DNA of 51,043 nucleotides from Ginglymostoma cirratum (GCA_024137785.1 JAHRHZ010000085.1:2902975-2954017), one strand, 5' to 3'; shown: positions 4,217 to 51,043, counted from the first letter of the stretch. The notes: a model not told the origin generated them from the letters alone. Program-made: numbers and translations.

Positions 4217-4376
4217 GTAAGTGTAAATAAAATGCGACAATTCGGTTTGAGGAGAAATTCAGATCGTGGAGCAGAATTCAAAGAGCAAGGCATGCTAATT
4301 TGCTGCTGTGTGTGTATTGAATTAATTATGTTATTTCATGTTGCAGTTCATATTCCCTGTATTCTTTTGTTAACAG

Positions 4377-6670: not shown

Positions 6671-6766
6671 CTCATTATCAAATATTTCACATTGTTAGGC
6701 CGAAAGTATCTAACGGATCCTTTTAAGGTGTGATTGAAATGATAGCATGAAGACGCGCACTTATTA

Positions 6767-7106: not shown

Positions 7107-7109
7107 GAA

Positions 7110-9480: not shown

Positions 9481-9489
9481 ATCTCTGTA

Positions 9490-10400
9490 GCAACATCTCC
9501 CTGAGGCGCTGTCTCCCAAAGTCAGAGTAAGAAACCAGTTCTGTGGTGAGGTGTAATTAGGTTAAAAACTGGAACATAAACAAAGTTGCTGGAAAAGATC
9601 AGCAGGTCTGGCAGCATCTGTGGAGGAGAAAACAGAGTTAACGTTTCGGGTCCGGCGACCCTTCCTCAGAACTGGTAATTAGGTAATTAGGTTAAGTGAG
9701 GGACATGCCTTCTCCAATTACCTAAAATCGCCACAAGGCTTTGGGCCATTTCTTTAGCCGTCTGGGCTTGCACCTAACTGATTTTATCTCTCACTTTGTC
9801 AGGAATCACACTCTCTCCACGGCCCATTGTATTCTCAGCAAAATAACACACCGGCTTGATCCCTGGATTTTTTTATGATTAACTTCCAGCCTTTATTCCG
9901 TAGGTGCTGAGTCAAAGTAGTCTTATCTTCGTCTATTGCTTCCTCTGTAGCGTCACGTAGCAATGTATCATCAATATGAAGGGCTGTTATATCGCTGGAG
10001 AGAGGGAACATCTCCAGATCCTCTCTATTAAACCATGGCAGAGAGTTGGAATGTGCAAGTGGGCCCCTGCAATCTACAAACTGTGTGCTCTCTTCTGTCC
10101 CATGTGAAAGCATATTGATTCTGTGAATTCACATCAAGGAAATGAAAGTATTCAGGAGGTAGATTCCGGCAAAGCACTCATCAGTTCCCAATGACAGTTG
10201 CTCCGGTAATGTTACAATCTCTGGGAGAGCCACTGCCAACGCTGGGGCGTGTTGATTTAACCGTCAGTCATCGACAGTCATTGTCCAGTTACCACCTGTT
10301 TTCTGTACTGTCCACACAAGGCAGTTATACAGGAAGACAGCTGGTCATACAACCTTTGCTTTCACTGACCCTTCAGTCGTGTCTGTGATCTCCTTGTGCC
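9490..10400 (-). pseudogene. Degenerate ERV reverse transcriptase (RNase H/integrase not seen)
   Basis: LAHSNSLPW...ITALHIDDTLLRDATEEAIDEDKTTLTQHLRNKGW; copy B reads ALYIGHILLRGPSEE...HLRDKGWEVNPEKIQRPS, an ERVL-type RT pattern. Confidence 0.85.
9566..9674 (+). mobile_element. Short Penelope-type insertion with duplicated target 'gtaattaggttaa', copy A only
   Basis: Absent at ~41395 in copy B; flanking sequence duplicated. Confidence 0.75.
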
Positions 10401-11950
10401 CTCAATAGTGCTTACCGTTAACAATTCGCGAAGGGAATGGAATGTATTGGGGTTCCCACTCAGCTTTCCCAACTACCGCATTCATCCTTCCTACGCCAAA
10501 TCAGAACTTTCCTGTTGGGTTCCATATTTCCATCCCCCTCACAACATCCATCCCAACTATATTTTCATTTATGCTGCGTATTAAGTCAGATACCATCCGC
10601 GGTGGTGTATTCCCATTGCCAATCGCACCAGTGTCTGTAGCGCCGGTCTTTCTGCTCTATCAAATCTGTTTATACTCATTTTAGTTCCCACATGTATGGA
10701 AGATATTGAACAAGACCACAACGTGCTGTTTATTTCCATTTCTCCAATGAATTGTGATACAGATGTATGGCCTCTCGACCCGAGTCGACTCTCCCTTTTA
10801 GTCACATCTCAGTGCCCTGGCCACTTTCCCAGTCAAGGGGATTACTCACTCGCCATATCTGCTCCAGTTCCTCGCATGTCGGGCACAGAAGGAACTCTGA
10901 TTTATCCTTCTTTTTTTTTCTGGGAAGTAACATCTATATCAAAATTGGCGTCTCACACCATGGAAGGGTTTTAACTCCCCTTTGGTCAATGACTGGATTT
11001 ACAAATCTTCTTCCAGAGGGAACATATAACACTGGTGGCGAAACCATGAATTTTCAGTCTATTTCTGACCTGCCTGTGCCTATTTTCCACAAAACAGAAA
11101 ACATCTCATTTTGCTGATTTTCTTCATTCGCTTCCTGTCCTTCCCTGCGTTTCCCTTGTTACCGCTCTCCTGCATGAGCTTGGCGCACTTCTGCATCCAA
11201 TAAATGTCTAAAGAACATTAAAACTTCACCGCCTGGTCTACTTGATCTGGCTCCAACATTGCCAGCAGCGTCCCTCTGAGATGCGTTGGTCCATTGTACA
11301 TGAGCTGGATTCTCATTGCGTTGTGAAAGCTCCTTGGTCCATCCCTGGAAATTGTTGATGTACAATCCCGTTGGTGCAGCTAACTCCAAAATCGGGCACT
11401 TCCCCGTGATATTGTACGCCACGGGACAGCTTCCTGCTCCCAATCCATGAGTGGTCCAGATACTTAGTTCTCACTGCTATGCGTGCCTAAGCATCTAATG
11501 CTCCTGTTCCCTGTGATCCATGTACAACATTCTGTGTGGCTGTGTATGGAGACAAGGCCCCTCATTATTGAGAGAAACATTAGAAGCCGTAGAGTCCCGC
11601 AGCTGGGTCATCCAAGCTCCCAGTACCCTGTTTTGTCCCAAATCCTGTAATTCTGTCAGTTAGTAATCCCGCACAATGCAAGCATGGTGTGGGGCCTGCT
11701 GGCCGTGCCCCTTAGCTGTATTAGTTACTAACGGGCGCGCAAAGGGGCACATTATCACCATTAGGGTCTCCTTCTCGATCAGTCTCCTCGTACTCCAAAT
11801 CGGACGAATATGAGTCCCAGTGATCGGGGACAAGCTGAAGCAAAGAAAAAGGGCACTTTAGCTCGATTCACTTTCCAAATTGTTTTTTTTTCCAGGCTAG
11901 CACACCTTTTGTGCTGCAATGAAGCAAATTTGCAGGTTAGACAGTTTGAC
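10400..11950 (-). pseudogene. Degenerate ERV gag-protease region
   Basis: Protease-like 'RGTGADMA' at ~10850-10875; gag-like 'WEQEAVPWRTI' at ~11410-11442 and 'FPGMDQGAFT'. Confidence 0.6.
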
Positions 11951-12686
11951 CGTCTGTTCTTACCAGACCGGCAGTTAGACACACCATTGTTCTGCCCTTC
12001 TCAAACTCCGATCACTGAATCTGCACTATCAACATCCTTTCCACCCAAGCACTCCAACACCACCCACCCATCATTGTATAAATGCTGCCCACCCCAGACT
12101 TTACCACGACTGATGAAGGGTCGCCGAGACCCGAAACGTCAGCTTGCTCTCTTTCCATGGATGCTGCCTGACCCTCTGTGATTCCCAGTACTTTTTGATT
12201 TTGATGCAGGCTATAGTAGTCTGCTTCTACTCGTCTTTATCTGCTCTTACCCGAGTGGTCCGAGCTGCCCTCGCCAGCGCAGTGGTCAATGTCCCGTTCG
12301 CCAACCTTTAAATCTCGCACCTCCCGGGGCAGCATACGGGAGGCCGCTCAGCAGGATCCACTCCATGTGGGTAATGCCCTTGGTTTGCTTTGGGACACCT
12401 ACCGCCCCCAGACAGCACTTAGTGGCATAAAGTAATCCCTTGGGATTCTGCTCCTAATCCCTTTCCCAAAACTAAGTGGTCCTGCCACAGACGACCGATC
12501 ACTAACTCACTGAACCAATTACTACAGGACCATCCCAGACACAGAATGCTTCCACAGCCAAAGTATCCTTCATTTCCTTCAACATTTTGCTTCGACCCTG
12601 CACGCAGCACCAAATATATTGTTCGGTTGAAAGTACCCAACTGGCGCTTTAAATTCTGGTCACAATGATTACTCGGTGCTTCAATA

Positions 12687-13458
12687 TGAAAAATTTATTG
12701 GGTTGAAGTACTTAATACAGAACTGAATTACAACTGAGAGACAGTAAGAACTGGCGATGCTGGAGTCAGAGATAACACAGTGTGGAGCTGGATGAACACA
12801 GCAGGCCAGGCAGCATCAGAGAAGCAGGAAAGCTACTTTTCAGGTCAGGATCCTTTTTCAGAAATGAGTTTCTGAATTTCCGAAGAATGCTCCCGACCGA
12901 AACGTTAGCTTTCCTGCTCCTCTGATGCTGCCTGGCCTGCTGTGTTCCCCCAGCTTCACATTGAATTACAACCGTTCGTTTACACTACACATGTATGTTA
13001 AAGCTAACCGGTGACGTTAACCTACTGAGGTATATATTAAACATGTGAGTTTCACACTGTCCTTCCGCTCCCCGGGGACGTGAGCGATGGCGGGACTTGG
13101 AGCTCTATCTCCAATTCCACGGAGCTTGCCTCACTCCCAATAGTGAAAGTACAATGTGTGGGGCACAGTCTCCGATATTAAAGCTGTTTTGAATTTAATG
13201 TTACATGCTGTTTTACTGTTTGGTCGGGTTTTCAGAACTTCTCCATGCATTCCACTGTGCAAAAACAGACTAAACACTTTCAAGGTGCTTCCTTTTTAAC
13301 TGCACAATATTGTGTTTCGCTCCAAGCCAAAAGATGCTGCTTTGCAATAACCTTGTAATTTTCTACTTGTCTTCAATTGCACATTGTCATGTCCAATTAA
13401 CCCTGAACGAATCATTCTCATGCTCTGCTTTGCAGACAGCTTTAATCCCAACATTACA
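12687..13458 (-). repeat. ERV 5' LTR, copy A, interrupted by a hairpin insertion
   Basis: TG at 12687, minus-strand AATAAA (tttatt, ~12694-12699), terminal 'cattaca' at 13458; homologous to 6767-7106, 39263-39845 and 44339-45120. Confidence 0.65.
12735..12961. mobile_element. Palindromic (fold-back) Penelope-derived element with an 11-bp TSD
   Basis: TGAATTACAAC at 12724-12734 and 12962-12972; the arms 'gaacacagcaggccaggcagcatcagag' and 'ctctgatgctgcctggcctgctgtgttc' are reverse complements. Confidence 0.85.
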
Positions 13459-13469
13459 CCTTTTCATAG

Positions 13470-14505
13470 TGTCGTCACGAGAACTGCACACAGTACTCCC
13501 GCTATGGACTCACTAAAGCCCTGTAAAAGTTCAATGTAACTTCTCTCCTCCTATAATCTGTACCATTCCAGACAAAAGTATGTGCCCTGTATGTTTCTCA
13601 ACCATCCTACTAATCTGCCTTGCCACCTTCAGTGATCTGTGAACAAGAAGTCCAAGGTCTTCCTGTTCTTCTGAGCTTCCTGTGTCTTGTCATTCATTGA
13701 ACAGTCTCTTCTGTTGTTATTTCTCCCAAAGCCCATTGAATATCTTCTAATACATTCAGAAACCAATGAGGCCGAAGGTGAAGCCCCCATTCATCATAAT
13801 ATAAACATAGTTTGGTCATTTTTGTGTACATTGAATGTGGTATTTACTGGGAGGACATTTATTGTCTGTAATTAATTGCCAAGAGAGCAGTTAACAGCCA
13901 TCGAAATGGCAGGGAGTCACATGCAGGCCAGTTAACAATGGCAGAATTACTTCCAGCAAGACATGAGTAAACTGCGTAGACTTAGTGTCATAGGTATAAA
14001 TAGCATGGAAACAGACCCTTCATTCCACCTCATCCATGCCTACCAGATATCCTGAATTAATCCAGTCCCAGTTGCCAACATTTGGTCCATATTCATTCGA
14101 ACCCTTACTGTTCATACACCCATCCAGATGCCTTTTAAATATTGCAATTTTACCAGCCTCTACCACTTGGTCTGCCATTTCATTCCAAACCCACAACAAT
14201 GTGGTTTGCGTGAAAAAATTGACCCTTGGATCTCTTTTAAATCATACCCCTGCCACCTGAAACCTATGCCATCTAGTTTTGGACTCGTCTACTCTGGGGA
14301 AAATAGTGATTATCCATCCTATCCATGGCCTATGATTTTACAGACCTGTATAAGGCCAGCCCACAGACTCCAATATACCAGAGAAAATGACTCCAGCCTA
14401 TTCAGCCTTTACTGATTGCTCAAACCCTCCAACTATGGTAACATCCTTGTAAATCTTTTCTGAACGCTTTCAAGTTTATCAACATCTTTCCTGTGGCAAA
14501 GAGAT
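13470..14505 (-). mobile_element. CR1/HER1 LINE 3' fragments
   Basis: 'agaactgcacacagtactcc', 'catggaaacagacccttc', 'aacatccttgtaaatcttttctgaac'. Confidence 0.8.
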
Positions 14506-14579
14506 AAGTGTTTTGAAGACAAATATTATTCCAGGTTTTTATGGAATTCAGATTACACCATTTAGCTCGAGTTGCTCTA

Positions 14580-15090
14580 TCATAGAAAAGATATCATGAA
14601 CCGAGAAATTGCGCAAATGAGAATTCCTCGGCTGCTACGTGGACTGGAATATTTGCGTGATGAGAAGAGGCTGGATAATGTGGGCTTTCTTTCCCTCGAG
14701 AATAGGAGACAGAAGGGTGACCTTATAGAGGTCTGAAAAATCATGAGAGGCAGAGGTAAGTAGATAGCTAACAGTTTTTCCCCAGGTTAGTAGACTCTCA
14801 GACGAGAAGGCATAGGTTTAACATAAGAGAGGAGAGAATAGAAAGAACCCAGAGTAGCAATTTTTTCACACAGAGTATGGTGCATGTCTGCAAAAGTCTG
14901 CCAGAGGTAGTGGTGGAGGCGAGTACAATTTTGTCATTTAAGAAACATTTGGACAGGTGGATGGAAGGTATGGGTATGGAGGGATATGCACCAAACGTAG
15001 GCAAATGAGACTAGTTTAATTGTGAACTCTGGGCGGGAAAGATAAGTTGGGCCAAAGGGTCTGTTTCCGTGCAGGAAACCTATGTGAATC
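14580..15090 (+). mobile_element. CR1/HER1 LINE 3' end
   Basis: 'agggtgaccttatagaggt...aaaatcatgagaggc...ttgggccaaagggtctgtttccgtgc'. Confidence 0.8.
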
Positions 15091-15650
15091 TCTGATATAG
15101 CTCCACACATCCAGTAGCTCGAGTTTATATTCCCCATTCATCATAATGCCACGTATTTGATTAAACATTAAACATAGAGTCACAGATGATTGGGTCGTAG
15201 CTGCAGAGACATTCAAATTACTTCAAAGGAAGTTCACCTCTCCGGAAAACCCAAACAAACCTGAAAGCATGTTCCATTACGTACTTTTTTCTGACTTTAA
15301 TCTCTATGCAATCCAATTCAACTCCCACAAAACAATTTAATATTTTGCTCCATAGCTTCGCAAGCTGAACACTTATTGAAATTAGCGCTACTCCCATATA
15401 TTTTAATTGTGTCATTAGTTGAGATACTTTTATCATTTACCTATTTTTCTGAGTTCCAAATATTTTGTTCCCAGCTGCATATGGGTTAGCTGAACAAAAA
15501 GACAGCAACATTGAAATGCCGAGACTTGATGTACTCTATGTATCGTATAAGCAAGGCTGTACAATTGGCAATGATAGACATGACATTTAAACCTGTGTAT
15601 TTTCAGTTTCTGTTCTAACTCCTAATTTTGAATTTATATTAACGTTACAG

Positions 15651-15757
15651 ATTTTGCCTCTAAAATCAGTGTTTCAATGACTGACAGTTGTGCCATTCAC
15701 GCACTTGCAATTCTCATACTGAACGTGATGATTTTCAAGGGTTCTTTATCTCCAAAG
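15651..15757 (+). pseudogene. Copy A transmembrane exon
   Basis: ttacag| DFASKISVSMTDSCAIHALAILILNVMIFK; 7 nt shorter than copy B; donor is GC (gcatga) versus GT (gtatga) in B. Confidence 0.75.
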
Positions 15758-16174
15758 GCATGAATAGGACAGAAGTGACTCATTGAAATTAGTGTAATTG
15801 GGAGCTGAATTTCTGAATTGTCCAATTTAAACAATTATTTTATGTGAAACCTCTTTCAAATATATACCTTGCTTCGCCTCAAATATGAAGTAAGAAGATT
15901 TGAAATTTCCATTTGCGAACTTGTATGAGTGTAGGTGAAAATTGTATTGATGAAAATCATTGTTGAAAGAAGTTTCTGTAGCTTCAACCCTGAAAACATG
16001 AATTCAAAGCATCTGTGTGTCACGTTTAGAGCTGTATTACAAAACTGTTGTTCCTATTTTACCCTGTTTACAAACACCGATTAATAGTTGAATTGCTATC
16101 GGTTTTTTCGTTTTGCTTATGCGTACAAATATCAGCTTTTATTGTTGGTGAGTAATGTCATTTTTATTTCTCAG

Positions 16175-16223
16175 GTGGGGGAAAGAAAAGAAATCAATCA
16201 ATCGAACTCAATATGAAGATGTG
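16175..16223 (+). pseudogene. Copy A cytoplasmic exon 1
   Basis: ttttatttctcag| acceptor; ...SINRTQYEDV; donor lost (ttgagg versus gtgagg in B). Confidence 0.65.
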
Positions 16224-18074
16224 TTGAGGCCAATTTCCTTCATTGTGTTTATTTTAATTTTCAAGTCTATTTGAACAATTTAAGCTCAGAACACAAATGT
16301 ATATTTCTGTACAGTCAGAGAGAGTCTTGAAAATTTCATTAGTTCTCAAAAACACTACATCAGCTGAATAAAAACACAATTGAGAAAATAGAAAGTGGTA
16401 AGAAGTTTCACGAACTGCTGCAAGTGTTTTAAATCTTCAAACATAGTTACCAAGTAGCATTGAGTTTTGTTTTCATTTGCACTTACCAAGTGACAGTATG
16501 CAGAAAAATTTTGCCACGTTGGTTACAGACATTATAATCAATGTTGATCACATTGTGCTGATGACTGTTTTGAATGGAAGTTTTCCAGGTGCAAATTGCG
16601 ATGATTGTTCCCTCCTCCCTTTCTACGCTGTTCAAAATAAATTCATGCATTAGTCTGAGTTCGGTGATTTTGTCTGACTTCTACCAAGCCACTTTACCAA
16701 AGAGCTCAATATATTATGCAGACAGCTTGCACAAGTTGGCTTCCTTTGAAAGCTTTTATCGTAGGCTGTCTCTTGGCTTGTGCAACGTGTTGCAGCACCA
16801 TGGAATCTTGGAAAATAAAATAATCAAGCTGCAGTAATGCAACCCTCTCTCATTTTTTAATTTTCAACATGTGAATATCAGTGACATGTGAGAGGCAGCT
16901 CCCTATCTGTGGCACCTGAAAAAGAGCAAGTGGGACTTATTCAGGAATAAGAGTTTGGCAAAAGTTGAAATCTTTGGTTGACCACACCAATGGACACAGC
17001 GCAATTACACATATTTATTCTTGACTACAGTTGAATGCAGAGCACACCAGCTGATTCCCTCTTCAAATGCATTTTAAAGCAGTTAAAGTCTTTAAATCAA
17101 TTGGACCGCTTTATTATCTCTGTTTCAGTCGTGGATCTGAATTTGTTTTTTAAAAAATTTCATTCTCCTTCGTTCAGTAAAATACTGCAAAAAGTGGTCG
17201 ACTCTTTCTTTGCATCTGATACCTGCAACTCCCTCCCTGACAGCAATGTTGCTAAATGATCTGGACTGCAGTCAAGAAAGCTGGTGTGCTGCTGGACTCT
17301 TAATAGGCAACAATTATTGGCGCCAAATACTGGCCTTGCCTGTGAGGCTCACGTCCTATTAAAAATAGTACGTCGTGCAAAATAGACCCACCTACATTCT
17401 GCAGGTGCAGAAAAACTTAAATTCCTTTCTTGGAGGTCTTCAGAAAAATATGTCAAAGAATTTATTCCAATACTACACGTTTTTCTCTGAAAATGTTGCA
17501 GCTGCACTGCTGTAGGAGACAGAATAAAGTCCTTTGATGGACAGGTGATTTGCTCAGCCTGTGTTTTATTGATCCATGAACCGTGGATCAGATGGAAAGA
17601 GAAAACAAAATTATCTATGATTGAGAAATACTTCACAGAAGACCAAACAGTCCATTTTAGAGCACTGAAATATTGTGGTTTACGTTTTAAACAAAAGTCA
17701 CATTTTTTCATTGTCACTCACCTGACCATTTTACACCCTAAAGAGTTGACACTTATTTGACTTAAAACATCAATAATTTACTTTAAACATACGATCTGGC
17801 ATCAGGTACACCATGCAAATTCTTTGAAAGTGCCCTGTACCTTCGCCTTCACTTCACACTTCAACTCCTTCATTTATGACCGTTGAGATGGCCCATTGAA
17901 ATCATTACCTTTCCTATTCAGAGGAGAGCAGGGTGATTCTAAAATTAATTTTCTAATTGCAGTGTTCAGGACAGTTATTCTTCTCTCCAATTGACCTACT
18001 AAAATATCTAATTTAAAGTGAGGGAATGGTTAGCCAAATCCTGCACCATCTATCCTCCGAATGAAAGACATTCG

Positions 18075-18815
18075 TAACAAAAGCAGAAATTGCTGGAAAA
18101 GCTCAGCAGGTCTGGCAGCATCAGGGGAGAGAAATCAGAGTTAATGTTTCAGCTCGAGTCACCCTTCCTCAGATAGATGTTACTCACATATTTCGAATAG
18201 TTGCCACTTATTATTTTCGTATGAAGCAGCGGGACCTGTGATTGTTTTATATCATTCTTACACAGAGACAAATTTATTTTTGGTTTATTGAGTTAACTTT
18301 ACTGCATGCTCAATTTGTAGCAGAACATAATAAAACAAGAATTCACCTCTCAGAATTAAAAAAAAAACTAATTACATTGAACTGACGAATGCAAACTTTT
18401 CGGCAGAACATTGCGCAATTGCAGCATTTCCCTGGTAACTTTAAATTAAAATTCTCTTACCATTAATAGTATTGAAAAATAATGTTTACTTGTGATTCGG
18501 TGTGATTTTCCTGGCAAGAAACAGTTCAGAGTAAGAAACTGTAAATTTTAATGATTGTAACGAAGTGTTAGCAAAGTCAGTATAACAATCTGTCGGAACA
18601 AATTACTGCAGATACTGAAAACAACAAAGGCTGGAGATCACAGTAGATCAGACAGCATCCAGGGAGAGAGACTAAGCTATAATTTTGAGTATAGATGTCT
18701 TTTTTATCAGAGCTCTGATGAAGAGTCATTTAATCTGGAAACATTAGCTTGCTCTCTGTCGACATGGGAATTGTCTGACCTGCCCTGATCTCCGGCATTC
18801 ATTGTTTTCAGTACA
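18075..18815. mobile_element. Two Penelope-type short repeats (about 18078-18172 and a hairpin at 18600-18812)
   Basis: 'gctggaaaagctcagcaggtctggcagcatc'; central 'ctctgatgaagagtca' with inverted arms. Confidence 0.65.
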
Positions 18816-18904
18816 ATAAACTAATTGTTCATTTTAAGAATGCACAATTGTCTCTTTACTCCAAAACAAAATAATCAAATAAATGATTCATCTTGACTTT
18901 CCAG

Positions 18905-19033
18905 AGAAAACGAGAAATGCCTGAGGATAAGCTGACATCTGTTGCTCTTGATCAAGTTGGTTCTGAGGATGGAATAATGTCTAAACAACAGGAAGAAATC
19001 ACAATCTATCAACGTACATTTAAGATCATATGT
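18905..19033 (+). pseudogene. Copy A cytoplasmic exon 2 (ITIM Tyr lost; 3' boundary uncertain)
   Basis: ctttccag| RKREMPEDKLTSVALDQVGSEDGIMSKQQEEITIYQ; copy B has LTYAAL at the same position. Confidence 0.7.
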
Positions 19034-19164
19034 GTAAATAATAAGTTTGTTTCTCATAATTAGTTGATTTTGAGCTGATATTTAATTATCTTTGTGTAAT
19101 TTTCAACTAGAATGATTTAGATGAGTCGGAATTCAACTTCAATGTTATTTTTCAAACAAAACAG

Positions 19165-19273
19165 AGAATGGCAAATTTACATTGCTCTGAAATTCAGTGA
19201 TTCCAGCACATCATCGAAACCCAAGCACCGAGAAATAAGTGCAGTGTACACAGCAGTGAAAAGCAGCCACTAA
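19165..19273 (+). pseudogene. Copy A terminal cytoplasmic exon
   Basis: EWQIYIALKFSDSSTSSKPKHREISAVYTAVKSSH*, an ITIM-like plus ITSM-like pair; TAA at 19271-19273. Confidence 0.7.
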
Positions 19274-22824: not shown

Positions 22825-23115
22825 CTTCTTTCGCAATAGTGTGACATTTGCTAGAAATGAGCCTGAAACGTGATGCACTTGACAAGTGTAAACTGTGTCG
22901 CATTCGACTGCCTCTGACACTTCTGAGGTGCTGACAACCTCAAAGTCCGTTGGTGTTTACTTGTTGCTCATTTCTAACTCCAGTCAAGACTTTTGTATTG
23001 TTTTTGTGCCAAGTAAGATCGAAGTCTTTTGGATAAAAGGCAGAAGTCCTGCACTGCAGAATGAAAGAAGCGTCTTCCAATGGTACCGGCACAATTTTCA
23101 GGGGAGTTAGTGAAG
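22825..23115 (-). pseudogene. Relic C: Ig C1-set exon
   Basis: acaatgcag| SLTPLKIV...LQCRTSAFYPKDFDLTWHKN...NGL, frameshift, then EVVST...VYTCQVHHVS; donor missing. Confidence 0.85.
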
Positions 23116-23769
23116 CTGCATTGTAAATCATATAATTCAGATAAATATAAACATCAGAATCCTACTCCAAAACTTCAATGATTTAGTGAACAAACCATCT
23201 GTAATTTTAGGGCACGCTTTTTCCATGAGTTGTCGTTATTTGTTAGGAGTAAATATTACATTTATCATATAACGACTCTGTCCCCTCCACTCCCCAAAAA
23301 AAGCGATTGATGCACCATTCCCAAGTTCAGCAAATTTGGTTTCTAACTTATATATTAATTATTACAGATATATTTGGGATATCATTCTGCATCCTTCTCA
23401 TAACAACCAGTTTGGAACTCGATTCAAGATCATAGAACTGCAACAGCCACAGTTCAAACGATGGGATAAGGAAATTTATTTTCAATTAGACACAGTATAT
23501 TCAAAATATACAATACTGCAGATGATATCTGCATCATTTCAAATTGTTTCCCGATGCTTAGATTAGGAAAGGAAAATGGGTGGCTTCAACGTTTGTTATT
23601 CACTTGTTCTGCAATAAATGCATTTCAGTACAATTTTCTAATTAAGTTAGAAATACAATTTATACTGTGACAGTTTCTACAAGTTTCTCACATTGCTGAT
23701 AATTTCATGTTAAAGATATTTAATGTTCATGTGAAATGCAGCTAAGACACCATGTTTGTCTGCAGTCAC

Positions 23770-24073
23770 ACTATCTCCAGTAAGTTGCACAGCAGTTTCT
23801 TTCCCAACCGTTCGATGTGATACTTGATGACACAATAATGTGTTCCAGCGACCTGGAACGTCATATCCAGAAGATGAAGGTCGGCTGCTCCTGTAACGAC
23901 GGTGAATAACTTTCTGCTATCCTCCTGCAGAAAGGTATTATTACCTTCTTTCCACCAGTAAGCAGCAATATTTGAATGGTTAATTTTGAAGGAGAGAGGA
24001 CATAGCACGAGAACTGTCTTATTGGTGACTCATCTGCGATCCGGTTTTACTTTGGCTGAAATGCCCACAGCAG
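23770..24073 (-). pseudogene. Relic C: Ig V-like exon
   Basis: gatag| AVGIS...*VTNKTVLVLCPLSF...AYWWKEG...LHLLDMTFQVAGTHYC; TGA at 24030-24032; 3' frameshift. Confidence 0.85.
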
Positions 24074-25039: not shown

Positions 25040-25324
25040 CTTCACCAGATCCCTTGAAAATTGTGCCAGTATTGTCAGAAAAACCTTTATCTCTGCAGGA
25101 CTTCTGCCAATGACCAAAATGACTTCAGTGTTCTTGGCACAAAAACGGTACAAAAATCTTGATTGGATTTCGAAATGAACAAGTAAAGAGCAACGGACTT
25201 TGTGAGGTTGTCACCTTCTTCTATGTGTCAGGCGCTGGCGAGTGCTGCACAGTTTACACTTGTCAAGTACATCATGTTTTTGGCTCATTTCCAGCAAATG
25301 TCAGTTACACTGTTGCAAAAGAAT
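25040..25324 (+). pseudogene. Relic D: heavily degraded C1-set exon
   Basis: acaatgcag|cttcaccagatccc; WHKNGTKILIGFRNEQVKSNGLCEVV...VYTCQVHHV; the upstream intron from ~24750 is homologous to the V-C1 intron of A/B. Confidence 0.8.
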
Positions 25325-25450
25325 GTACAACCCTATGACTCTGACAAATGATATTCAAAAAAAAAATCTGTTTGTGAATATGATATTCAAGCCTGTTTAT
25401 GTCTGGTTTACGCTCCAGTTTCTAATTTTGATTTTACATCAACCTGACAG

Positions 25451-25561
25451 CTTTTGCCTCGAAAATCAACGCTGTTATGATCATTGGATCTGTCCATGTT
25501 GCATTTGCAATTATTCTGCTCTCCTCTACGATCGGGATGTTTCTATTCATTATATTCAACG
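25451..25561 (+). pseudogene. Relic D: transmembrane exon
   Basis: tgacag| FASKINAVMIIGSVHVAFAIILLSSTIGMFLFIIFN; homologous to 15651 and 47424; donor mutated (atatgg). Confidence 0.75.
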
Positions 25562-36090: not shown

Positions 36091-36630
36091 CAAAACATGT
36101 GTTTTCTTTGAAAGGGCCTCAGTTGTATCCTGTGGCTGAATTGAAAATCTGAGAAATATTTTCTCAAAGAAAGGATATTATCGTTGTGTGGACACGGGTA
36201 TAAAATTGAAGGATGGAGTTTTGGTATTGGTCCGGCCGATATTGCACCCAAGCCTGGTGGGTCATGTGAGTTGATATGGACTCTGACAGTAGTTTCACCA
36301 TCTCGGGGTTGATTTTGCTGTAACTGCAGTTGTCTATCCGTGTTATCATTTCCGCTCACTGTTACCGCAACAAGATCTGATGCGAAAACGCATGCATGTT
36401 GTGCACTCGGCGAGGAATTAGTCACGAGCTTCTTGACTTCATTTAGACGCAAGTGATTAAAATCGATGCATAAGTGATGTTGCAACAAACATTCATCAGT
36501 TCTCTTTTTATATCCAATGTCTGATCTGCCAGATTTTCTTTGTCGCTATGTTTGTGAGTGGATCATTTTGGAACATATGTTTGTTATCAATTTCATATCC
36601 AGGTACATGTTTCTTCTTGCAGTGTTTGAA

Positions 36631-36739: not shown

Positions 36740-36905
36740 ATAAGTGAAAATAGTACAGTTAGGGCAGAAATTCAGATAGTGGAGCAGAATTTAAAGAGCA
36801 AGACATGCTAAATTGTTCCTGTATGAGTGCATTGGATTAATTATGTTATTTCATGGTGCAGTCCAACTTCCCTATTTAATCAGGGTATATTTCTTTTGTT
36901 AACAG

Positions 36906-37217
36906 TTGCTGTGTGCACTTTGGACAATGCTGCTCTGAATATTATGCAAACAAAGGCCCTGATCAATACAACAGCGATCCTGCGATGCGATTTCTCCTTC
37001 GAACTCAACCTTTCAAACATAACGGTTTTCTGGTGGCGGGAAGGTAATAAGATGCTTCTGAAGGAAGACAGTAAAAAGCTCTTCAAAGTCATGAAACGGA
37101 GAGCCTACCTTCATCTCTTCAATGTGACTGTCCTGGATGCTGGAATATATTACTGTGTAGCCACAAATCAGCACAGAACGGTTGATGACAAACACGCTGC
37201 GCAACTTGTTGTCTACG
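36906..37217 (+). CDS. Copy B Ig V-like exon, intact frame (312 nt, phase 1/1)
   Basis: AVCTLDNAALNIMQTKALINTTAILRCDF...VFWWREG...LHLFNVTVLDAGIYYCVA...QLVVY; AG and GT intact. Confidence 0.85.
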
Positions 37218-37905: not shown

Positions 37906-38211
37906 CTTCACCAGCTCCTCTGAAACTTGTATCAATACATTTTGAAGACCCTTCATCTGCTTCTTTCAAGCTGTTATGCAGGACATCTGGCTTTTATCCA
38001 GAAGACTATAACCTCACTTGGCACAGAAACGGTACACAAATCGTCACTGGATTTAAAAATGTAAAACAGGCAAAAGGTGACGGACTTTTTGAAGTAGTCA
38101 GCTCCTTGGACGTGCCAAATATACCCAAACGTGATACAGTGTACATGTGTCAAGTACATCACGTTTCGATCACATTTCCAGTAAATGCTAGCTACATTCT
38201 GACAAGCGAAG
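37906..38211 (+). CDS. Copy B Ig C1-set exon, intact frame (306 nt, phase 1/1)
   Basis: SPAPLKLV...LLCRTSGFYPEDYNLTWHRNG...DGLFEVVSSL...VYMCQVHHVS; tgcag| acceptor and |gtaaga donor. Confidence 0.88.
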
Positions 38212-39262: not shown

Positions 39263-42200
39263 TGTATAGCTAATTTATTTAGTTCGTACTTCGTAAGTAT
39301 ATGAATTAATAGTTGACATTTTAAATTGTGGATATATTTTAAAGTGAAATGGTTAGGTTAATCCACTCAGATATATGTTAAACATATGATTCTCATACCG
39401 TCATTCAGACTCGGCGGGGTCTTTGGCAATGGCAGCACTTGGAACTCTGTCTCAGATTCCACGGTGCTCGTCTCACGAACTTCAGCCCAACGGTGAAAAT
39501 CCAATCACTGGGACAAATCCCCGATATTAACACTGTTCTGAATCTACTATTACACGATAAGCACCATTTCATAGCACTTACAGTACTTCTCCTGGTATTT
39601 CACTGTACAGAAATCAAGTTGGAAAAAAAGACTTGCGGGATGGCTTCTTTTTAACTGCACATTATAGTGTTTCCCACCCAACCAAGGTCATGCAGTTACC
39701 TCCCAGCCAAAGAAGGCCGGTTTTACACTAAATTTACACTAAATTTTTCACTTGTCTTCAATTCTGATTTTCATGTCCAATTAACCCTAAATGATTAACA
39801 CTGACTAGTTAGATTTGGTTATGTCATTTTTAAGCCCAGACCACACAACATCCATTGATGTCTTCAAACTCGATTATCGAACCATAATACAAGCATGTGC
39901 ATGCTGCTCAGTAGCTATAATTTGGTTTTTCATCCTAGATAGTTTACAGGCATTTCAAAGGTACATAAAAACAAGAAACAAGCAATTAACAATAATATAG
40001 ACAATTGAATACCATAGCAGTGAGAGTACAGCTGAAGCTTTTGGTGACCAGCCGTTAAATACGCTCCACTAATGATGCATAAAAAGGGTTCCTATACTGT
40101 CTGCTTTGCGAATCAATTGATCATGGCTGTAAGTCATGGCAGTTCTTGATGTAAGAAGCCATGGTGTACTGTTCCCAAGTGAGAAATAATCTGTTCATGA
40201 TTGGCAAGGAGAGTTTGCAATTTCTTAAATATCACATGTGGAAATACCCTACCCGATACACAGTTATCGCCTCCCATTCTTTGATTATATGGTGTTTATA
40301 TCTATTTTTCTCAGAGAAACATGTATTTTGTCCCTAAATAGATTGGCAGATGGTTCTGCTGTCTTATCATTCAGGTAGACACTGTGTGTTGGAATCCAAT
40401 ATGTGGTTCAGGCCAATTTCTTAGATGTTATTTCTTATTTCTTATCATGTTTCAAAGGTAAGGAAATTTAAGGGGCATAACAGGCCTTCTGGCTATTGTT
40501 CCTAGTGGGTCTCATTGTTGTTATTCAGCCATGTGCCAAAAAACACAGGTGTCCCCGCAGCATACCCCGAGACAGATGAGGAGGGTGATGGACTGACACC
40601 ATATTTGCTGCTATGTACTTGTTTTTTTTAAATGGCATGACGTGCTGAGACAGCGTAATTACTATTTAACAAATCAAGCAAAAATGTTAACTTGGTAATG
40701 GTGAGGGGAAACATTTGTTTCCAAGACTACAGGTTTCCCGATGGCAATGCATTGGTTACTTTAACGTCTTTGCACTAAAACTATACCGCTCGAGCAGATT
40801 ACAATGTATTCAGTTAGCTTCAGCACGAAGATTCAGCTGGATGTTATGCAATTCCTAAACGGTGCTGTTAGCAAACTTCCAAACCTCGTTGGTCAAAAAC
40901 CAATTTGCTAAATCTCTATGGGTTAATGGTTTGGCCCACACAGCAAGTCGTTTATTCGCTTTCTTTGCGACTTGCCCAGCTTTAGCAATTCTATTTTATA
41001 TTGTTTCAGTACTAATGGAAGTAAATACGCCTATTCCCGCCTCTGCCCAAAAAAGAATGACGACGAGTACTTTCTTCCTGCCTCGCATCTGTAATGTTGT
41101 TCGTGTGTATATCGAACAGCAATTGGGAAGGTTATTTATTTCTAATAGTTATCTCCACTGTCACGGTTAAAACAATATTCGGTTTGGGGTGCAGTATCAT
41201 ACAACTGTATGGCATTTCATGGAGATGAATTCATGGCCCACCATAATAATCTACAAAATAGTTTAACCCCGTTATCTCTGCGGCATTTTGACAAACCAGC
41301 TAATCACCCTGCATATGCACCACTGCCAGGCAACATCTCCCTTTGGCCCTGTGGCCCAAAGTCCGAGTAAAAAACCAGTTCAGTGGTGAGGTGTAATTAG
41401 GTTAAGTGAGGGACATGTCTTCTTCAATAACCTTGCATTTCCACAAAGCTTTGGGCCATTTCTTTAGCGGTCTGGGCCTGAACCTCGCTGGTTTTATTTC
41501 TCACTTTGTCAGGAATAACAGGGTGTCCCCGGTCTATTGTATTCTCAGCAAAATAACACAACAGCTTGGTCGCTGGATTTTCTCAGGATTAACTTCCCAG
41601 CCTTTATCCCGTAGGTGCTGAGTCAAAGTAGCTATGTTTTCGGCGATTGCTTCCTCTGAAGGGCCACGTAGCAATATATGACCAATATAGAGGGCTGTTA
41701 TATCGCTGGAGAGAGGGAACATCTCCAAATCCTGACTATTAAACTGCGGCAGAGGGTTGGAGTGCGCAAGTAGCCCTGCGCAACCTACAAACTGTGTGTC
41801 CTATGCCCTCTCGTGAGAAAGCAAACTCATTCTGTTAATTCCCATCAAGGGCAATTAAAACTAAAGCGTTAGCCATGTCGCCTGCGGCAAACCATTCATA
41901 AGTTCCCAATGACAGTGATTCCAATAATGTTACAATCTCTGGGAGAGCTGATGTTAACGGTGATGCGTGTTGGTTTAAACGTCAGTCATCAACCACCATT
42001 CTCCAGTTCCCGTCTGGTTTCTGAACTAACCACACAAGGCAGTTATACCGGGAGAAGTAAGTGATACGACCCTTGCTGTCACTGACCCTTCAATAGTGTC
42101 TGTGATCTCTTTGTGCCCCCAATACAGCTTACCATTAACAATGCGTGAAGGGAATGGAATGTATTGGGATTCTGACTCAGCTTTCCCAACTACCATATTC

Positions 42201-45120
42201 ATCCTTCGTACACCAAATCATGACTTTCCTGTTGGGGTCCCTATTCCCATTCCCCTCACAACATCCATCCAGACAATATTTTCGTTTATGCTGCATATTA
42301 ACACAGATACCATCCGCGGTAGTCTATTCCCCATTGCCAATCGCACCAGTGACCGCATCGCTGGTCTTTCAGCTCTCTCAAAGCTATTTATAGTCATATT
42401 AGATCCCACATGTCTGGAAGATATTGAGCGAGACCACAAGGTGCTGTTAATTTCAATTTTGTCAATGAATTGTGATAGGGATGTTTGGCCTCTGGACCCT
42501 TGAGTCCACACTCTCTTTTGGTAACATCTCAGTGTCCCGGCCACTTTCCCAGTCGAGGGAAGAGGCATCTAAATCAGAATTGGTGTCTCACACCATGGGA
42601 GGGGTCAATGTCCCCTTTGGTCCCTGACCGGATTAACAAATCTACTTCCAAAGGGAACACATAACACTGGTGGTGATACCATGCATTTTCTGTCTATTTC
42701 GGACCTGTCGGTGCCTGTTTTCCATAAAGCATAGACATTTTATTTTGCAGAGTTTCCTCATTCGCTTCCCCTTCTTCCCTGGGTTTTCCTTGTTACCGAT
42801 CTCCTGCATGAGCTTGGCGCACTCGCATCCACCAACTGTCGAAACAACATTACAGCTACACCGCCTGGTCTGCCCTGAGCTGGTCCGTACATTGCCAGCA
42901 GCGTCCATCTGAGATGAGTTGGTCCAAAGTGCATGAGCTGGATTCTCATTCGGCTTGTGAAAGCTTCTTGGTCCATCCCTGGAAATTGTTGATGTACAAT
43001 CCCGTTTGTGTAGCTAACTCCGGAATCGGGCACTTCCCTGTGATATTGTACGCCACGGGACAGCTTCCTGCTCTCAATCTATGAGAGGTCCCGATATTTA
43101 GTTCTCACTGCTATGCGTCTTCATGCAGTGAATGCTCCTGTTCCCTGCGCTCCATGGAGAGCATTCTGCGTGGCTGTGTGTAGAGACAAGGCTCCTCATT
43201 ATTGAGAGAAACATGAGGTATCACGGAGTCTCACAGCCGGGTTATCCAAGCTCCCAGTGCACTGCTTTCTGCTGGAATATTTTTCCCCAAATCCTGCAAT
43301 TCTGTCAGTTAGTAATCCCGCACTATGAGAGCATGCTTTGGGGGGCCTGCTGGCCTTGCCTCTTAGCTGTATTAGTTACTAACGGGCGCGCTAAGGGGCA
43401 CATTATCACCATTAGGGACTCCTTCCCCATCAGTCCCCTCGTACTCCGAATCAGATGAATATGAGTCCCGGTGATTGGGGACCAGCTGAAGCAAATAAAA
43501 AGGACACTTCAGCTGGATTCACCTCCCACTTTGTTTTTTTTCCTGCACGCCCGCTCTTTGTGCTGCAATGTGGCCAATTTGCAGGTTATCCCGTTTGAAA
43601 GTCTGTTCTTACCAGTCCGGCAGTTAGACACACCATTGTTCTGCCCTTCTCATATTCCGATCACTTAATGTGCAATGTCAACATTCTTGCTCCCACAGCA
43701 CTCCAACTCCCACTACAGCCCCCAACACCCAAAATTGCATACGTGCTGCCCCCTCCAGACTTCACCAGCTCTGATGAAGGGTGGTCCAGACCCGAAATGT
43801 TAGCTTGCTATCCCTCCATGTGACCCGCTGTGATTCCCAGTACTTTTTGTTTTCATTACAGGCTGGACGAGTCTGCTTCTACTCAGATTTATCTGCTCTT
43901 TCCTAAGTGGTCCGAGCCGCCCTCGCCAGCACAGTGGTCAATGTCCCATTCGCCTCCTTGAAATCTCGAACCTCCCGGGGCAGCAGACGGGAGGCCGCTC
44001 AGCAGGATCCACGCCACAGGGGTAGCGCTCTTGGTTTGCTTTGAGAAACCTACTTCCCGCAGACAGCCCTTCATGGCACAGAGTAATCCCTTGGGATTCT
44101 GCTTCTAATCGCTTTCCCAAAACTAATTGGTCCTGCCACATACAACCGGTCACTAACTCACGGAACCAATTATTACAGGACCTTCCGAGACACACAATGC
44201 TTCCACAGCCAAAGTATCCTTTATTTCCTTCAACATTTCGCTCAGACCCCACACGCAGCACCAAATATATTGTTCGGCTGAAAGTACCCAACTGGCTCTT
44301 TAAATTCTGGTCACAATGATTACTCGGGTACTTCAATATGTATAATTTATTGGGCTAAAATACTTAATACAAAACTGATTTACAACTGAGAGACAGTAAG
44401 AACTGGCGATGCTGGAGTCAGAGATAACACAGTGTGGAGCTGGATGAACACAGCAGGCCAGGCAGCATCAGAGGAGCAGGAAAGCTACTTTTCGGGTCTG
44501 GATCTTTTTTCAGAAATGTGTTTCTGAATTTCCGAAGAATGGTCCCGACCGAAACATCAGTTTTCCTGCTCCTTTGATGCTGCCTGGCCTGCTGTGTTCA
44601 TCCAGCTTCACATTGAATTACAACCGTTCGTTTACACTACATATGTATATTAAAGCTAACCGGTGACGTTAACCTACTGAGATATATATTAAACATGTGA
44701 GTTTCAAACTGCCATTACGCTCCTCGGGGATTTTGACGATGGAGCTTGGAGCTCTACTTGGAGCTCTATCTCCAATTTCACGGCGCCTGTCTCACTCCCA
44801 ACAGTGAAAGTCCAATGAGCGGGGCACAATCCCCGATATGAAACTTGTTTTGAATCTAATGTTACGTGCTGTTTCACCGTTTGGTCGTATTTTCAGCGCT
44901 TTCCCACGCATTCCACTGTGCGAAAACAGGTTAAAAACACTTTCAAGCTGTTTCCTTTTTAATTGCACAATATTGTGTTTCCCTCCCAGCCAAAAGTTGC
45001 TGCTTTGCAGTAACCTGGTAATTTTCTACTTGTCTTCAATTGCACATTGTCATGTCCAGTTTACCCTTAACGAATCGTTCTCATGCTCTGTTTTGCAGAT
45101 AGATTTAAGCCAACACTACA
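39263..45120 (-). mobile_element. Endogenous retrovirus, copy B (LTRs about 39263-39845 and 44339-45120)
   Basis: Collinear with 6767-13458; RT ORF 41534-41728; env cleavage region MRGRKK|VLVVILFWAEAGIGVFTS at ~41090-41015; the protease motif region is deleted near 42560. Confidence 0.85.
44386..44612. mobile_element. Palindromic Penelope-derived element, counterpart of 12735-12961
   Basis: Same arms; TSD tga(t/a)ttacaac. Confidence 0.85.
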
Positions 45121-47423: not shown

Positions 47424-47537
47424 ATTTTCCCTCTGAAGTCACTGTTACTATGGCTGCCAGTTGTGCCATTCGTGCACTTGCAATTCTCATATTGACCGTG
47501 ATGATTGCCAAAGGTGTTCTGTTCTTTATCTCCAAAG
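47424..47537 (+). CDS. Copy B transmembrane exon (114 nt, phase 1/1) with an intramembrane Arg
   Basis: ttacag| DFPSEVTVTMAASCAIRALAILILTVMIAKGVLFFISK G|gtatga. Confidence 0.78.
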
Positions 47538-47953
47538 GTATGAACAGAATAGAAATGACTCACTGAAATTAGTGTAATTGGGAGCTGAATTTCTGAATTG
47601 TACAGTTTAAACAACTATTTTCTATGAAACCTCTTTCAAACATGTACCTTGCTTCACATCAAATATGAAGGAAGAGGATTTGAAGTTTCACTTTGCGAAC
47701 TTGCATGAGTGGATGTGAAAATTGTATTGATGAAAATCATTGCTGAAAGAAGTTTCTGTAGCGTCATACCCGAAAACATAAATTCATAGCATCTGTGTGT
47801 AACAATTAGAGCTGTATTGCGAAACTGTTGTTCCTATTGTATCCTGTTTACAAACACCGATTCGTAGTCAAATTGCTTACGGTTTCTTTGTTTTGCTTAT
47901 GCGTACAAATATCAGCTTTTATTGTTGGTGAGTAATGTCATTTTTATTTCTAG

Positions 47954-48002
47954 GTGGGGGAAAGAAAAAAAATCAATCAATCGAACTCAGTATGAAGATG
48001 TG
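47954..48002 (+). CDS. Copy B cytoplasmic exon 1 (49 nt)
   Basis: ttttatttctag| ... |gtgagg; reads GGGKKKNQSIELSMKM in phase 1, or WGKEKKSINRTQYEDV in phase 2. Confidence 0.65.
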
Positions 48003-50603
48003 GTGAGGCCAATTTCCTTCATTGTGTTTATTTTAATTTTCAAGTCTATTTGAACAATTTAAACCAGGAACACAAATGTATATTTCTATAAAGTCAGAGA
48101 GAGTCTTGAACATTACATCAGCTCTCAAAAACACAACAAACGGTTGCAACTGTTTTAAATCTTCAAACATAGCTGCCAAGTATCATTGAGTCTTGTTTTC
48201 ATTCGCACTTACCAAGTGACAGTATGCAGAAAAATTTTGCCACGTTGGTTACAGACATTATAATCAATGTTGATTGCATTGGACTGATGACTGTTTTGAA
48301 TGGTAGGTTTCCAGGTGCGAATAGCGATGATTGTTCCCGCCTTCTTTTCTACGCTATTCAAAATTCATTCATGCATTAGTCTGAGTTCGGTGATTTTGTC
48401 TGACTTCTACCAAGAGACACTACCAAAGAGCTCAATATATTGTGCAGACAGCTTGCACAAGTTGGCTTCCTTTGAAAGCTTTTATCGTCGGCTGTCTCTC
48501 GGCTCGTGCAACGTGCTGCAGCACCAGGTATTCTTGGAAAACAAAATAATCAAGCTGTAGTGATGCAACCCTCTATCATTTTTTAATTTTCAACATGTGA
48601 ATATCAGTGACATGTGAGAGGCAGCTCCCTATCTTTGACACCTGAAAAAGAGCAAGCGGGACTTATTCAGGAATAAGTGTTTGGCAAAAGTTGAAATCTC
48701 TGGTTGACCACTCCAAGGGACACAGTGCAATTACACATATATATTCTTGACTAAATTTGAATGCAAAGCACACCAGCTGATTACCTCTTTAAATGCATTT
48801 TAAAGCAGTTAAAGTCTTTAAATCAATTGGACCGCTTTTTTATCTCTGTTTCAGTCGTGGATCTGAATTTGTTTTTTTAAAAAATTTCATTCTCCTTCGT
48901 TCAGTAAATTACTGCAAAAATGGTCGACTCTTTCTTTGCATCTGATACCTGCAACTCCCTCCCTGACAGCAATATTACTAATTGATCTGGACTGCAGTCA
49001 AGAAAGCTGGTGTGCTGCTGGACTTTTAATAGGCAACAATTATTGGCGCCAAATACTGGCCTTGCCTATGAGGCTCACATCCTATTAAAAATAGTACGTC
49101 GTGCAAAATAGACCCACTTACATGCTGCAGGTGCAGCAAAACTTAAATTCCTTTCTTGGAGGTCTTCAGAAAATTATGTCAAAGAATTTACTCCAATACT
49201 ACACATTTTTCTGTGAAATTGTTGCAGCTGCACTGCTGTAGGAGACAGAATAAAGTCCTCTGATGTACAGGTGCTTTGCTCAGCCTGTGTTTTATTGTTC
49301 CATGAACCGTGGATCAGATGGAAAGAGAAAACAAAATTATCTATGATTGAGAAATACTTCACAGGAAACCAAAGGGTACATTTTAATGTACTGAAATATT
49401 GTGAATTAAGTAATAGACAAAAGTCACTTATTTTCCATGTCAGTCACCTGACCATTTTACTCCCTAAAGAGTTGACAATTTTCTAACGTAAAACATCAAT
49501 AATTTACTTTAAACATACGATCTGGCATCAGGTATACCTTGCAAATTCTTTGAAAGCGCGCTGCATCTTCATCTTCACTTCACACTTCGACACCTTCATT
49601 TCTGACCGTTTCGATGGCCCATTGAAATAATTACCTTTCCTATTCAGTGGGGAGCAGGGTGTTTCTAAAATTAATTTTGTAATTGCAGTGTTAAGGACAG
49701 TTAATCCTTCTCTCTAATTAACCTCCTAAAGTACCTAATTTAAAGTGAGGGAATGGTTAGCCAAATCCTGCACCATCGATCCTCCGAATGAAGGACATTC
49801 GTATGAAAAGCAGAAATTGTTGGAAAAGCTCAGCAGGTCTGGCAGCATCAGGGGAGAGAAATCAGAGTTAAATTTTCAGCTCGAGTCACCCTTCCTCAGA
49901 TAGATGTTACTCATATATTTCGAATAGGTGCAACTTATTATTTCAGTCTGAAGTACCAGGACCTGTGATTTTTTATATCATTATTAAATAAAGACAAATT
50001 TATTTTTGCTTTATTTAATAAACTTTACTGCATGTTGAAAATGTGGCAGAATGTAATAAAACAGGAATTCACCTCTCAGAATTCAAAAACCTACTTACAT
50101 TGAACTGATGATTGCAAACATTTCGCCTGAACACTGCACAATTGCAGCATTTCCTGGTAACTTTAAATTAAAATTATTATAAGATTAATAGTACTGAAAA
50201 ATAATGTTTACTTGTGATTCGTTGTGATTTTTCTGGCAAGGAACAGTTTAATGATTGTAATGAAGTGTGAGCAAAGTCAGTACAATAATCTATCGGAACA
50301 AATTACTGCAGATATTGAAAACAACAAAGGCTGGAGACCACAGTGGATCAGACAGCATCCTTGGAGAGAGAGTAAGCTAAAATTTTGAGTATAGATGGCT
50401 TTTTATCAGATTTCTGGTGAAGCGTCATTTTGTCCGGAAACATTAGCTTGCTCTGTCTCTATGTCGGAATTGTCTGACCTGCTACGATCTCCGACATTCG
50501 TTGCTTTCAGTACAACAAACTAATTGTTCATGTTAACAATGCACAATTGTCTCTTTACTCCAAAACAAAATAATCAAATGAATGGTTACTCTTGACTTTC
50601 CAG

Positions 50604-51043
50604 AGAAAACGAGTGGACCAAAGAAAACAAGCAACGGCACGATGACTCAGTGGTTAGCATCGCTGCGTCACCGCGCCAGAAAACCCGGGTTCGATCCCAG
50701 TCTTGGGCGACTCTCTGTGTGGAGTTTGCACATTCTCCCCGTATCTGCGTGGGTTTCCTCCGGCTGCTCCGGTTTCTCCCACAGTCCAAAGGTGTGCAGG
50801 TTAGGTTGATTGGCCATGCTAAATGGCCCGTAGTGTTCAGGGACGTGTAGATTGGATGGGTTGTAGGGGGTTGTGTCTGGGTGGGATGCTCTGAGGTTCG
50901 GAGTGGAATTGCTGGGACTGAGGGCCTGTTTCCACAGTGTAGGGATTCTAGTCTATGCCTGAGGATTAGCTGACATATGCTGCTCTTGATCAAGTTGGTT
51001 CTGAGAATGGCATAATATCTAAACAACAGGAAGAAATCTCAAT
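50604..51043 (+). pseudogene. Copy B cytoplasmic exon 2, split by a SINE; retains ITIM LTYAAL
   Basis: ctttccag| RKRVDQRKQA [SINE] MPED*LTYAALDQVGSENGIISKQQEEIS; TAG at 50967. Confidence 0.75.
50635..50954 (+). mobile_element. Relatively young V-SINE (HE1-like), copy B only
   Basis: Full head 'ggcacgatgactcagtggttagc...gggttcgatccc', V-domain and CR1-like tail 'gggcctgtttccacagtgtagggattcta'; absent at 18915. Confidence 0.92.

Follow-up and report, generated by a model that had tools for sequence, protein, structure and literature searches.

Several described receptor systems resemble the shark genes analyzed here. SIRP proteins have a V-C1-C1 architecture, and their tail carries four tyrosines in two repeated units. 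SIRP-beta1 has a Lys in the middle of its transmembrane (TM) segment and works with DAP12, LILRA and PIR-A are receptors of the Arg/FcRgamma-CD3zeta type, and the ectodomain of KIR2DL4 consists of the C2-type domains D0-D2.

The following descriptions reflect the accessible parts of the sources cited. KIR2DL4 couples to FcR-gamma, and a 9A/10A run switches its tail (PMC6288254, PMC1318474). Pairing of a TM Arg with the Asp of an adaptor is described for NKp46 and NKp30 (PMC6514059) and for KIR2DL4 (PMC1318474). In mammalian KLRC, KLRI, KLRB, KLRA, and PIR, the signaling halves of paired receptors predate speciation while the ligand-binding halves have been homogenized within species, a process termed 'merohomogenization' (PMC3210942). 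Other nonrearranging VJ-C1 genes are mentioned in sharks, with no mention of SIRP in the accessible part of that paper (PMC10751288). A literature search with little coverage of subscription journals found no description of the shark family that is the subject of this report. By analogy with these systems, copy B and its cluster would be a new shark instance of the known paired-receptor design.

The window and its receptor family

The window, that is, the whole stretch of 51,043 nt from Ginglymostoma cirratum that was analyzed, holds two large related units, A at about 1-19 kb and B at about 33-51 kb, plus the remnants C and D. Its features are as follows.

4029..19273, plus strand: copy A, a pseudogene of the Arg lineage with a leader frameshift, a stop in V, and deletions in C1 and TM
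22845..24024, minus strand: copy C, broken V and C1 remnants
25040..25561, plus strand: relic D, a broken C1 and TM remnant with Val (GTT) at the Arg/Gly position
36548..36602, plus strand: copy B leader exon, 55 nt, ATG and GT donor intact
36800..37200, plus strand: low-divergence tract covering the V exon of copy B plus some 100 nt of the intron before it
36906..37217, plus strand: copy B V-type Ig exon, open
37906..38211, plus strand: open C1-set exon of copy B, with its two Cys and its Trp retained
40300..44700, strand unassigned: mosaic crossover zone in the copy B C1-TM intron, from informative-site counts
47424..47537, plus strand: copy B stalk/TM exon, 114 nt, splice sites intact
47471..47473, plus strand: copy B Arg codon CGT, exon residue 16 (ancestral form, Gly)
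47954..48002, plus strand: copy B tail exon 1, 49 nt, with an A-run at 47965-47972
50604..50613, plus strand: copy B tail exon 2, 5' piece, whose first A completes a TGA stop
50614..50954, plus strand: SINE-like repeat inside copy B tail exon 2, inserted at the same place as in g3584
50955..51043, plus strand: copy B tail exon 2, 3' piece, in which a TAG at 50967-50969 precedes the LTYAAL ITIM

The stretch 4030-4215 was ruled out as a leader, the true leader being 55 nt long. A gap of 3000 N follows directly after position 51043 and splits tail exon 2 of copy B; comparison with paralogues makes its flanks appear nearly contiguous.

A search of the shark's own genome with the TM region returned 25 matches. 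The roughly 1.2 Mb examined around them, which is part of the interval, gave 30 modeled loci, of which 29 include a TM exon and 23 have the V, C1, and TM exons together; loci are named g plus their position in kb. In the family layout, leader, V, C1, and TM exons are followed by a tail in three exons, of which the first has 44 or 47 nt and the second 111 nt; every model and relative has a single C1 exon. The four Tyr motifs of the ancestral tail are found in g2219, g2555, g2686, g2829, and g3667. By script, the leader-to-TM frame is intact in 7 of the 23 complete loci, namely, g2219, g2555, g2893, and g2273, which have Gly at TM-exon residue 16, and B, g2301, and g84b, which have Arg. With an in-frame ATG 12 nt further on, g84a is probably an eighth intact locus. 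A core C1 residue is lost in g2273 (Cys) and g84b (Trp). At least 15 of the 23 complete loci are broken; N gaps leave several loci without exons, and the ectodomains of g3584 and g3667 fall in an N gap. Among these clustered genes, the ligand-binding domains are near-identical, as expected of paired receptors. On the inhibitory side, g2219 and g2555 are intact and combine four Tyr motifs with Gly16 and with the Lys29 that is found in all 31 TM rows of the family.

Word-indexed protein searches with the V exon alone gave no match; a profile search did match. The named relatives among its 16 matches come from sharks and rays only, with the closest in carpet sharks, and their database labels include uncharacterised, SHPS-1-like, SIRP-beta-1-like, B7-H6-like, and others. 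The family ectodomain gave Ig/V-set and C1-set matches, both below the curated cutoff for V-set. Sequence, profile, and fold searches of solved structures returned generic Ig domains, with no SIRP chain among the matches listed. The family resembles SIRP-alpha and SIRP-beta1 in joining a V domain to a C1-set domain and in its four-Tyr tail of two repeated units, but it has one C1 domain where SIRP has two and thus lacks the V-C1-C1 architecture. Because of this single C1 domain and the lack of a SIRP match in the structure searches, we do not file the family as SIRP.

Further V-C1 genes lie at 1.96-2.13 Mb (L125-L134) and 9.6-9.9 Mb of contig G000:C85 and at 6.7-7.5 Mb of contig C84; a J-like NGTG motif is present in those examined and has been lost from the A/B subfamily. 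A second, apparently older V-C1 receptor of the Arg type, with an HLIYRS motif and a short tail, is located at about 1.907-1.918 Mb of G000:C85 (L123, L124). It has counterparts in bamboo shark, catsharks, and sevengill shark, and ray relatives have a WIVRG motif. In horn shark, an inhibitory family member (P0152, XP_067906072.1) has a duplicated ITIM exon pair and hence eight Tyr motifs.

The transmembrane arginine and the shortened tails

At TM-exon position 16, 10 loci encode Arg, 17 encode Gly, and A encodes His; an indel makes g2169 unreadable, and a 'His' there was discarded as an artifact of that indel. The 11 loci of the Arg lineage form one branch nested among Gly loci (91/89 in the intron-only tree, 97/95 with exons), and residue 16 is Gly in both horn shark models and Arg in the zebra and epaulette shark models. 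Since the Arg clade is nested among Gly copies and the horn shark models have Gly, Gly is the ancestral state. Relic D was rejected as an outgroup: its TM finds its best match in Gly-type genes, and a search for its tail exons found none that was convincing. Since D is a decayed remnant with a Gly-type-like TM, its Val is not considered ancestral. The Gly-to-Arg change happened once, in an ITIM-bearing Gly ancestor. With 36 columns and 3 changes, the TM protein tree offers too little sequence to separate out the Arg group between species, and the proposed cross-species orthology of Arg16 rests on position and on the shared exon 2 shift.

The Arg codon starts with a CpG, which is kept in 10 of the 11 copies. 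At intronic CpG sites of the same clade, the mean share of copies keeping the dinucleotide is 37%, and none of 12 sites reaches 90%; at CpG sites defined by the outgroup, 10% are kept, with 0 of 7 reaching that level. These controls are few and were ascertained differently from the Arg codon, and with that reservation the retention of the CpG points to selection on Arg. The best 19-residue hydropathy window of copy B spans residues 17-35 and starts just past the Arg, and that of g2219 is identical; the Arg of copy B may sit at the membrane edge.

Basic residues also occur elsewhere in this segment. g84a (G000:C84, 5.8-12.6 kb, L096-L097) combines Gly16 with an Arg that arose independently at residue 12 of the TM exon, and a separate 2-nt deletion in its tail exon 2 has left it with one ITIM, possibly a second origin of the layout with Arg and one ITIM, or else decay. 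The horn shark model P0023 (XP_067905013.1) has Arg at residue 15 and stops after tail exon 1, and it may be incomplete; it adjoins a Gly paralogue of 87% identity whose tail contains Tyr.

Spliced to the 49-nt exon and on to the exon after it, the TM exon of copy B leads into a tail of 16 residues that contains no Tyr and ends in the junction TGA. Five splice forms of this tail were tried and none yields a Tyr; exon skipping, read-through, and a neighboring acceptor were all ruled out as ways to rescue the frame. The in-frame paralogous exon measures 47 nt, and the change falls within the A-run at 47965-47972; in the ancestral frame, the exon would read a TQYEDV motif. The 49-nt form is common to B, A (16175-16223, with a dead donor and with tail exons 2 and 3 present), and g3584, so the exon of copy B is real and old. 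B and g3584 also have in common the insert in the ITIM exon, which is about 340 nt long and gave no match in an Rfam search. Past the 3000-N gap, beyond the window, the exon 2 donor of copy B reads GA. If the exon 2 intron is left unspliced, the stop of copy B would escape nonsense-mediated decay, as it would then lie at the last junction.

No Arg-clade copy (0/11) has the full tail, although no exon 2 or 3 was recovered for g2341, and long tails with three or four Tyr occur in 8 of the 18 other loci. The basal Arg pair, g84b and g2715, has a 48-nt exon 1. The other Arg branch has a 109-nt exon 2, by which the three distal Tyr are dropped, and keeps the first ITIM if exon 1 is 47 nt long. This one-ITIM form, the conserved one of the Arg genes, is represented by the intact g2301, the broken g3536, and zebra shark XP_048402851.2, whose tail closes with the same shifted peptide. 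The combination of Arg and an ITIM-free tail holds for B, while g2301 and zebra shark P0154 retain one ITIM.

Shifts in tail exon 1 are widespread. Within one and the same tail type, 3 of 6 Gly copies and 7 of 11 Arg-clade copies have a shifted exon 1 (P = 0.64). Shifted tails make up 10 of 17 type I tails versus 0 of 12 type II tails, whose exon is built differently (P = 0.001). Exon 1 length changes at least five times on the tree, and whale shark P0163 combines Gly with a shifted, truncated tail. The A-run is a slippage hot spot, and as Gly copies of the same tail type are shifted equally often, the shift is not specific to Arg, which is much older than the tail shift of copy B. Part of the Arg lineage has gained a Tyr in tail exon 1 through a His-to-Tyr change (YEDE/YEDV; window positions 47954-48002, g2301, and g3017), which is in frame in the intact g2301. 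We take this motif to resemble an SH2 docking site.

The first-pass annotation had read the codon as CGT in B and CAC in A and had given Val for D, had described the Tyr-free tail that ends in a junction TGA, and had placed a TAG and an inserted repeat in the ITIM exon, all of which we confirmed. It had also described a 1-nt frame mismatch whose position could not be fixed from the window. The mismatch is real, but it consists of an exon 2 nt too long, not 1 nt short, and comparison with paralogues does place it, in the A-run. A homopolymer assembly error was ruled out as its source, with 49 nt at three loci and a G interrupting the run in copy A. The proposed co-occurrence of TM Arg with short tails is borne out in that no Arg-clade copy has the full four-Tyr tail, and intact paralogues with a TM Arg do exist (B, g2301, and g84b). 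Arg genes with an in-frame ITIM tail, which would have spoken against that proposal, occur in part: one ITIM may be kept, the full tail never. That the frameshift converted the receptor is not supported, however, given that Arg is far older, that the conserved Arg form retains an in-frame ITIM, and that Gly copies are shifted as well.

Exchange of ectodomains and the structure of copy B

The V+C1 tree conflicts with the TM-tail tree. In the former, a single clade of Arg-tail genes is rejected (AU test, P = 9e-76), and so are the ectodomains of A and B as sisters (P = 3e-6); the TM-intron tree in turn rejects a clade of B and its ectodomain partners (P = 1e-7). The groups in these AU tests were named after the first tree had been seen. 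The 'A/B ancestor' posited by the first-pass annotation is therefore not upheld for the genes as a whole, A and B having only the TM-tail half in common. In the V+C1 tree, g2301 pairs with g2219, B with g2555, g3073, and g3479, g2507 with g2859, and g2618 with g84a, and four Arg tails adjoin Gly genes. The same is seen in zebra shark, where the V domain of XP_048402851.2 (Arg, one ITIM) is identical to that of the inhibitory, four-Tyr XP_059507783.1.

Informative sites along copy B follow the same division. Up to 40.3 kb they favor the Gly/ITIM trio by 330 to 63, between 40.3 and 44.7 kb they are mixed, and beyond 44.7 kb they favor the Arg-lineage copies A and g3017 by 125 to 7. Copy B is a chimera that joins an ectodomain shared with inhibitory paralogues to an Arg-type TM and tail.

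Against three Gly/ITIM-type paralogues, the V exon of copy B has 1 private change in 279 compared sites, with no amino acid change over 220 sites. The quiet tract covers V and about 100 nt of intron and has 1 private change in 375 sites versus 5.8% in introns. It may reflect conversion restricted to V and/or purifying selection; since it reaches into the intron, conversion alone could explain part of the low V divergence. The cluster resembles merohomogenization (PMC3210942, as described in its accessible part) in that its signaling halves predate speciation and its ligand-binding halves have been homogenized time and again within species, but it differs in belonging to cartilaginous fish and in showing whole-ectodomain swaps plus a V-only tract.

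Fate and predicted function of copy B

Copy B has an unbroken 278-codon leader-V-C1-TM frame with no stop and every splice site intact, as well as eight N-glycosylation sequons, and structure prediction gives its V domain a normal Ig fold (pLDDT 82). In simulations, a neutral frame of this kind survives in 2% of cases, or in 15% at half the divergence. The private changes in C1 comprise 13 replacement versus 6 silent ones, and those in the stalk 3 versus 0; with most loci broken, the open frame may also be that of a young pseudogene. A search of sequencing runs listed no match recorded as RNA. A contig from run X1, which was guessed to be RNA, covers leader and V; it differs from B at 45 places and agrees with A at 25 of the 31 sites listed. 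As it is closer to A than to B, it speaks only for a relative. Among the matches listed from two contig sets searched with B, there was no contig identical to it and no exon joint, so these sets are silent on its expression. The first-pass annotation had regarded the locus as a 'fossil' of an inhibitory-to-activating conversion. The derivation of Arg from an ITIM-bearing Gly ancestor stands, and 'fossil' is right for A and D, but because of its unbroken frame and a V domain almost unchanged from that of its inhibitory partners, the word is wrong for B.

In design, KIR2DL4 comes close, with an Arg near the outer TM end, a single ITIM, and a tail-switching A-run (PMC6288254, PMC1318474, in the parts accessible). 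Shark g2301 and zebra shark XP_048402851.2 resemble its 10A form and B its 9A form, but the KIR2DL4 A-run ends the TM exon and is allelic, whereas the shark run lies in the next exon and differs between paralogues. The shark genes are not members of that group either, their V-C1 ectodomain being unrelated to KIR-type Ig. NKp46 and NKp30 (PMC6514059, accessible part) likewise have an Arg in the outer TM and a short, motif-free tail, but their ectodomains are different, and the shark Arg can be traced to a Gly-to-Arg change within an inhibitory family.

Taken as a whole, the Arg lineage is likely to be the family's activating-type partner. We give about even odds to activating signaling by copy B itself, in which its Arg would pair with the Asp of an adaptor of the FcRgamma/CD3zeta type. 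Adaptor-coupled activation is favored because of the Arg-Asp pairing of NKp46 and NKp30 and because a CD3zeta/FcRgamma-type TM exon with Asp is present in the genome (G000:C32, 158728-158814, L121; the only PF11628 match in the search). The sequences show an ancestral form with Gly and four Tyr motifs, which underwent the single Gly-to-Arg change that is also seen in the zebra and epaulette shark models. Early tail losses followed in both Arg sub-branches, either through a 2-nt deletion ending tail exon 2, with one ITIM left, or through a +1 shift in exon 1. Ectodomains were swapped repeatedly between Arg-tail and Gly/ITIM-tail genes, with B arising by crossover in the C1-TM intron. In the branch of A, B, and g3584, a +2 slip in the A-run removed the last motifs, and the downstream exons decayed afterwards (SINE, stops, dead donor). 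In the proposed scenario, selection would maintain the Arg and the V domain, and copy B is predicted to be expressed, to share the ligand of its inhibitory twin g2555, and to activate through the ITAM of the adaptor. More tentatively, and with somewhat less confidence than doubt, we propose that sharks have repeatedly grafted one long-lived, activating Arg module onto inhibitory V-C1 ectodomains, with the A-run as a KIR2DL4-like switch that turns a dual, one-ITIM graft into a purely activating one and B as a live end product; each stage of the path from inhibitory to activating receptor would then be legible at a single locus.

It is also conceivable, if unlikely, that the Arg lineage is truly of the activating type while B is recently dead or dying, its +2 slip being ordinary birth-and-death decay. 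The recurrent changes in exon length, as common in Gly copies, the concentration of shifted tails in type I, the broken state of the sisters A and g3017, and the weak constraint on the C1 and stalk of B all fit such a history. Against this, the frame of B has stayed open since a shift that it shares with A, which has since gathered many lesions, neutral survival is low in the simulations, and V lacks replacement changes. Copy B might instead be expressed and not signal, as a decoy or as an unstable, 9A-like competitor for the ligand of its inhibitory twin. Truncated tails do occur with Gly too and are conserved to whale shark, and the tail-less KIR2DL4 9A is described as unstable at the surface and without an IL-8 signal in 293T (PMC1318474, accessible part); we nevertheless think this improbable, since a decoy would have no need of the CpG-bearing Arg that is retained throughout the lineage.

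Two further explanations concern the position of the Arg and the integrity of the assembly. The Arg could cap the outer end of the helix and shift its register, bringing Lys29 into the bilayer, where it would couple to an adaptor of the DAP12 type. Lys29 is indeed invariant and lies inside the best window of B, but the inhibitory members have it too, g2219 has the same best window, and a DAP10-family search gave no match, which makes this coupling very improbable. That chimera B is an assembly join of the ectodomain of one locus to the TM and tail of another is suggested by the N gap that holds the ectodomains of g3584 and g3667 and by the g3667 tail, an outgroup of the trio to which the 5' half of B is an outgroup. 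We give such a join hardly any credence: the window is free of N, the switch is a 4-kb mosaic with no sharp join, the identity of B to g3584 and g3667 in this zone is only about 87-94%, and exchanges of the same kind are seen again at other loci and in zebra shark.

If the adaptor-coupled reading of copy B and its lineage is true, the pathogen-driven paired-receptor design, its homogenization, and a KIR2DL4-like intermediate would extend to cartilaginous fish, which are the oldest jawed vertebrates alive, and would do so in a family whose database labels go no further than uncharacterised or SIRP-like. The matched pairs B/g2555 and g2301/g2219, together with the two zebra shark proteins with identical V domains, bear on whether activating twins are long-lived modules or short-lived derivatives.
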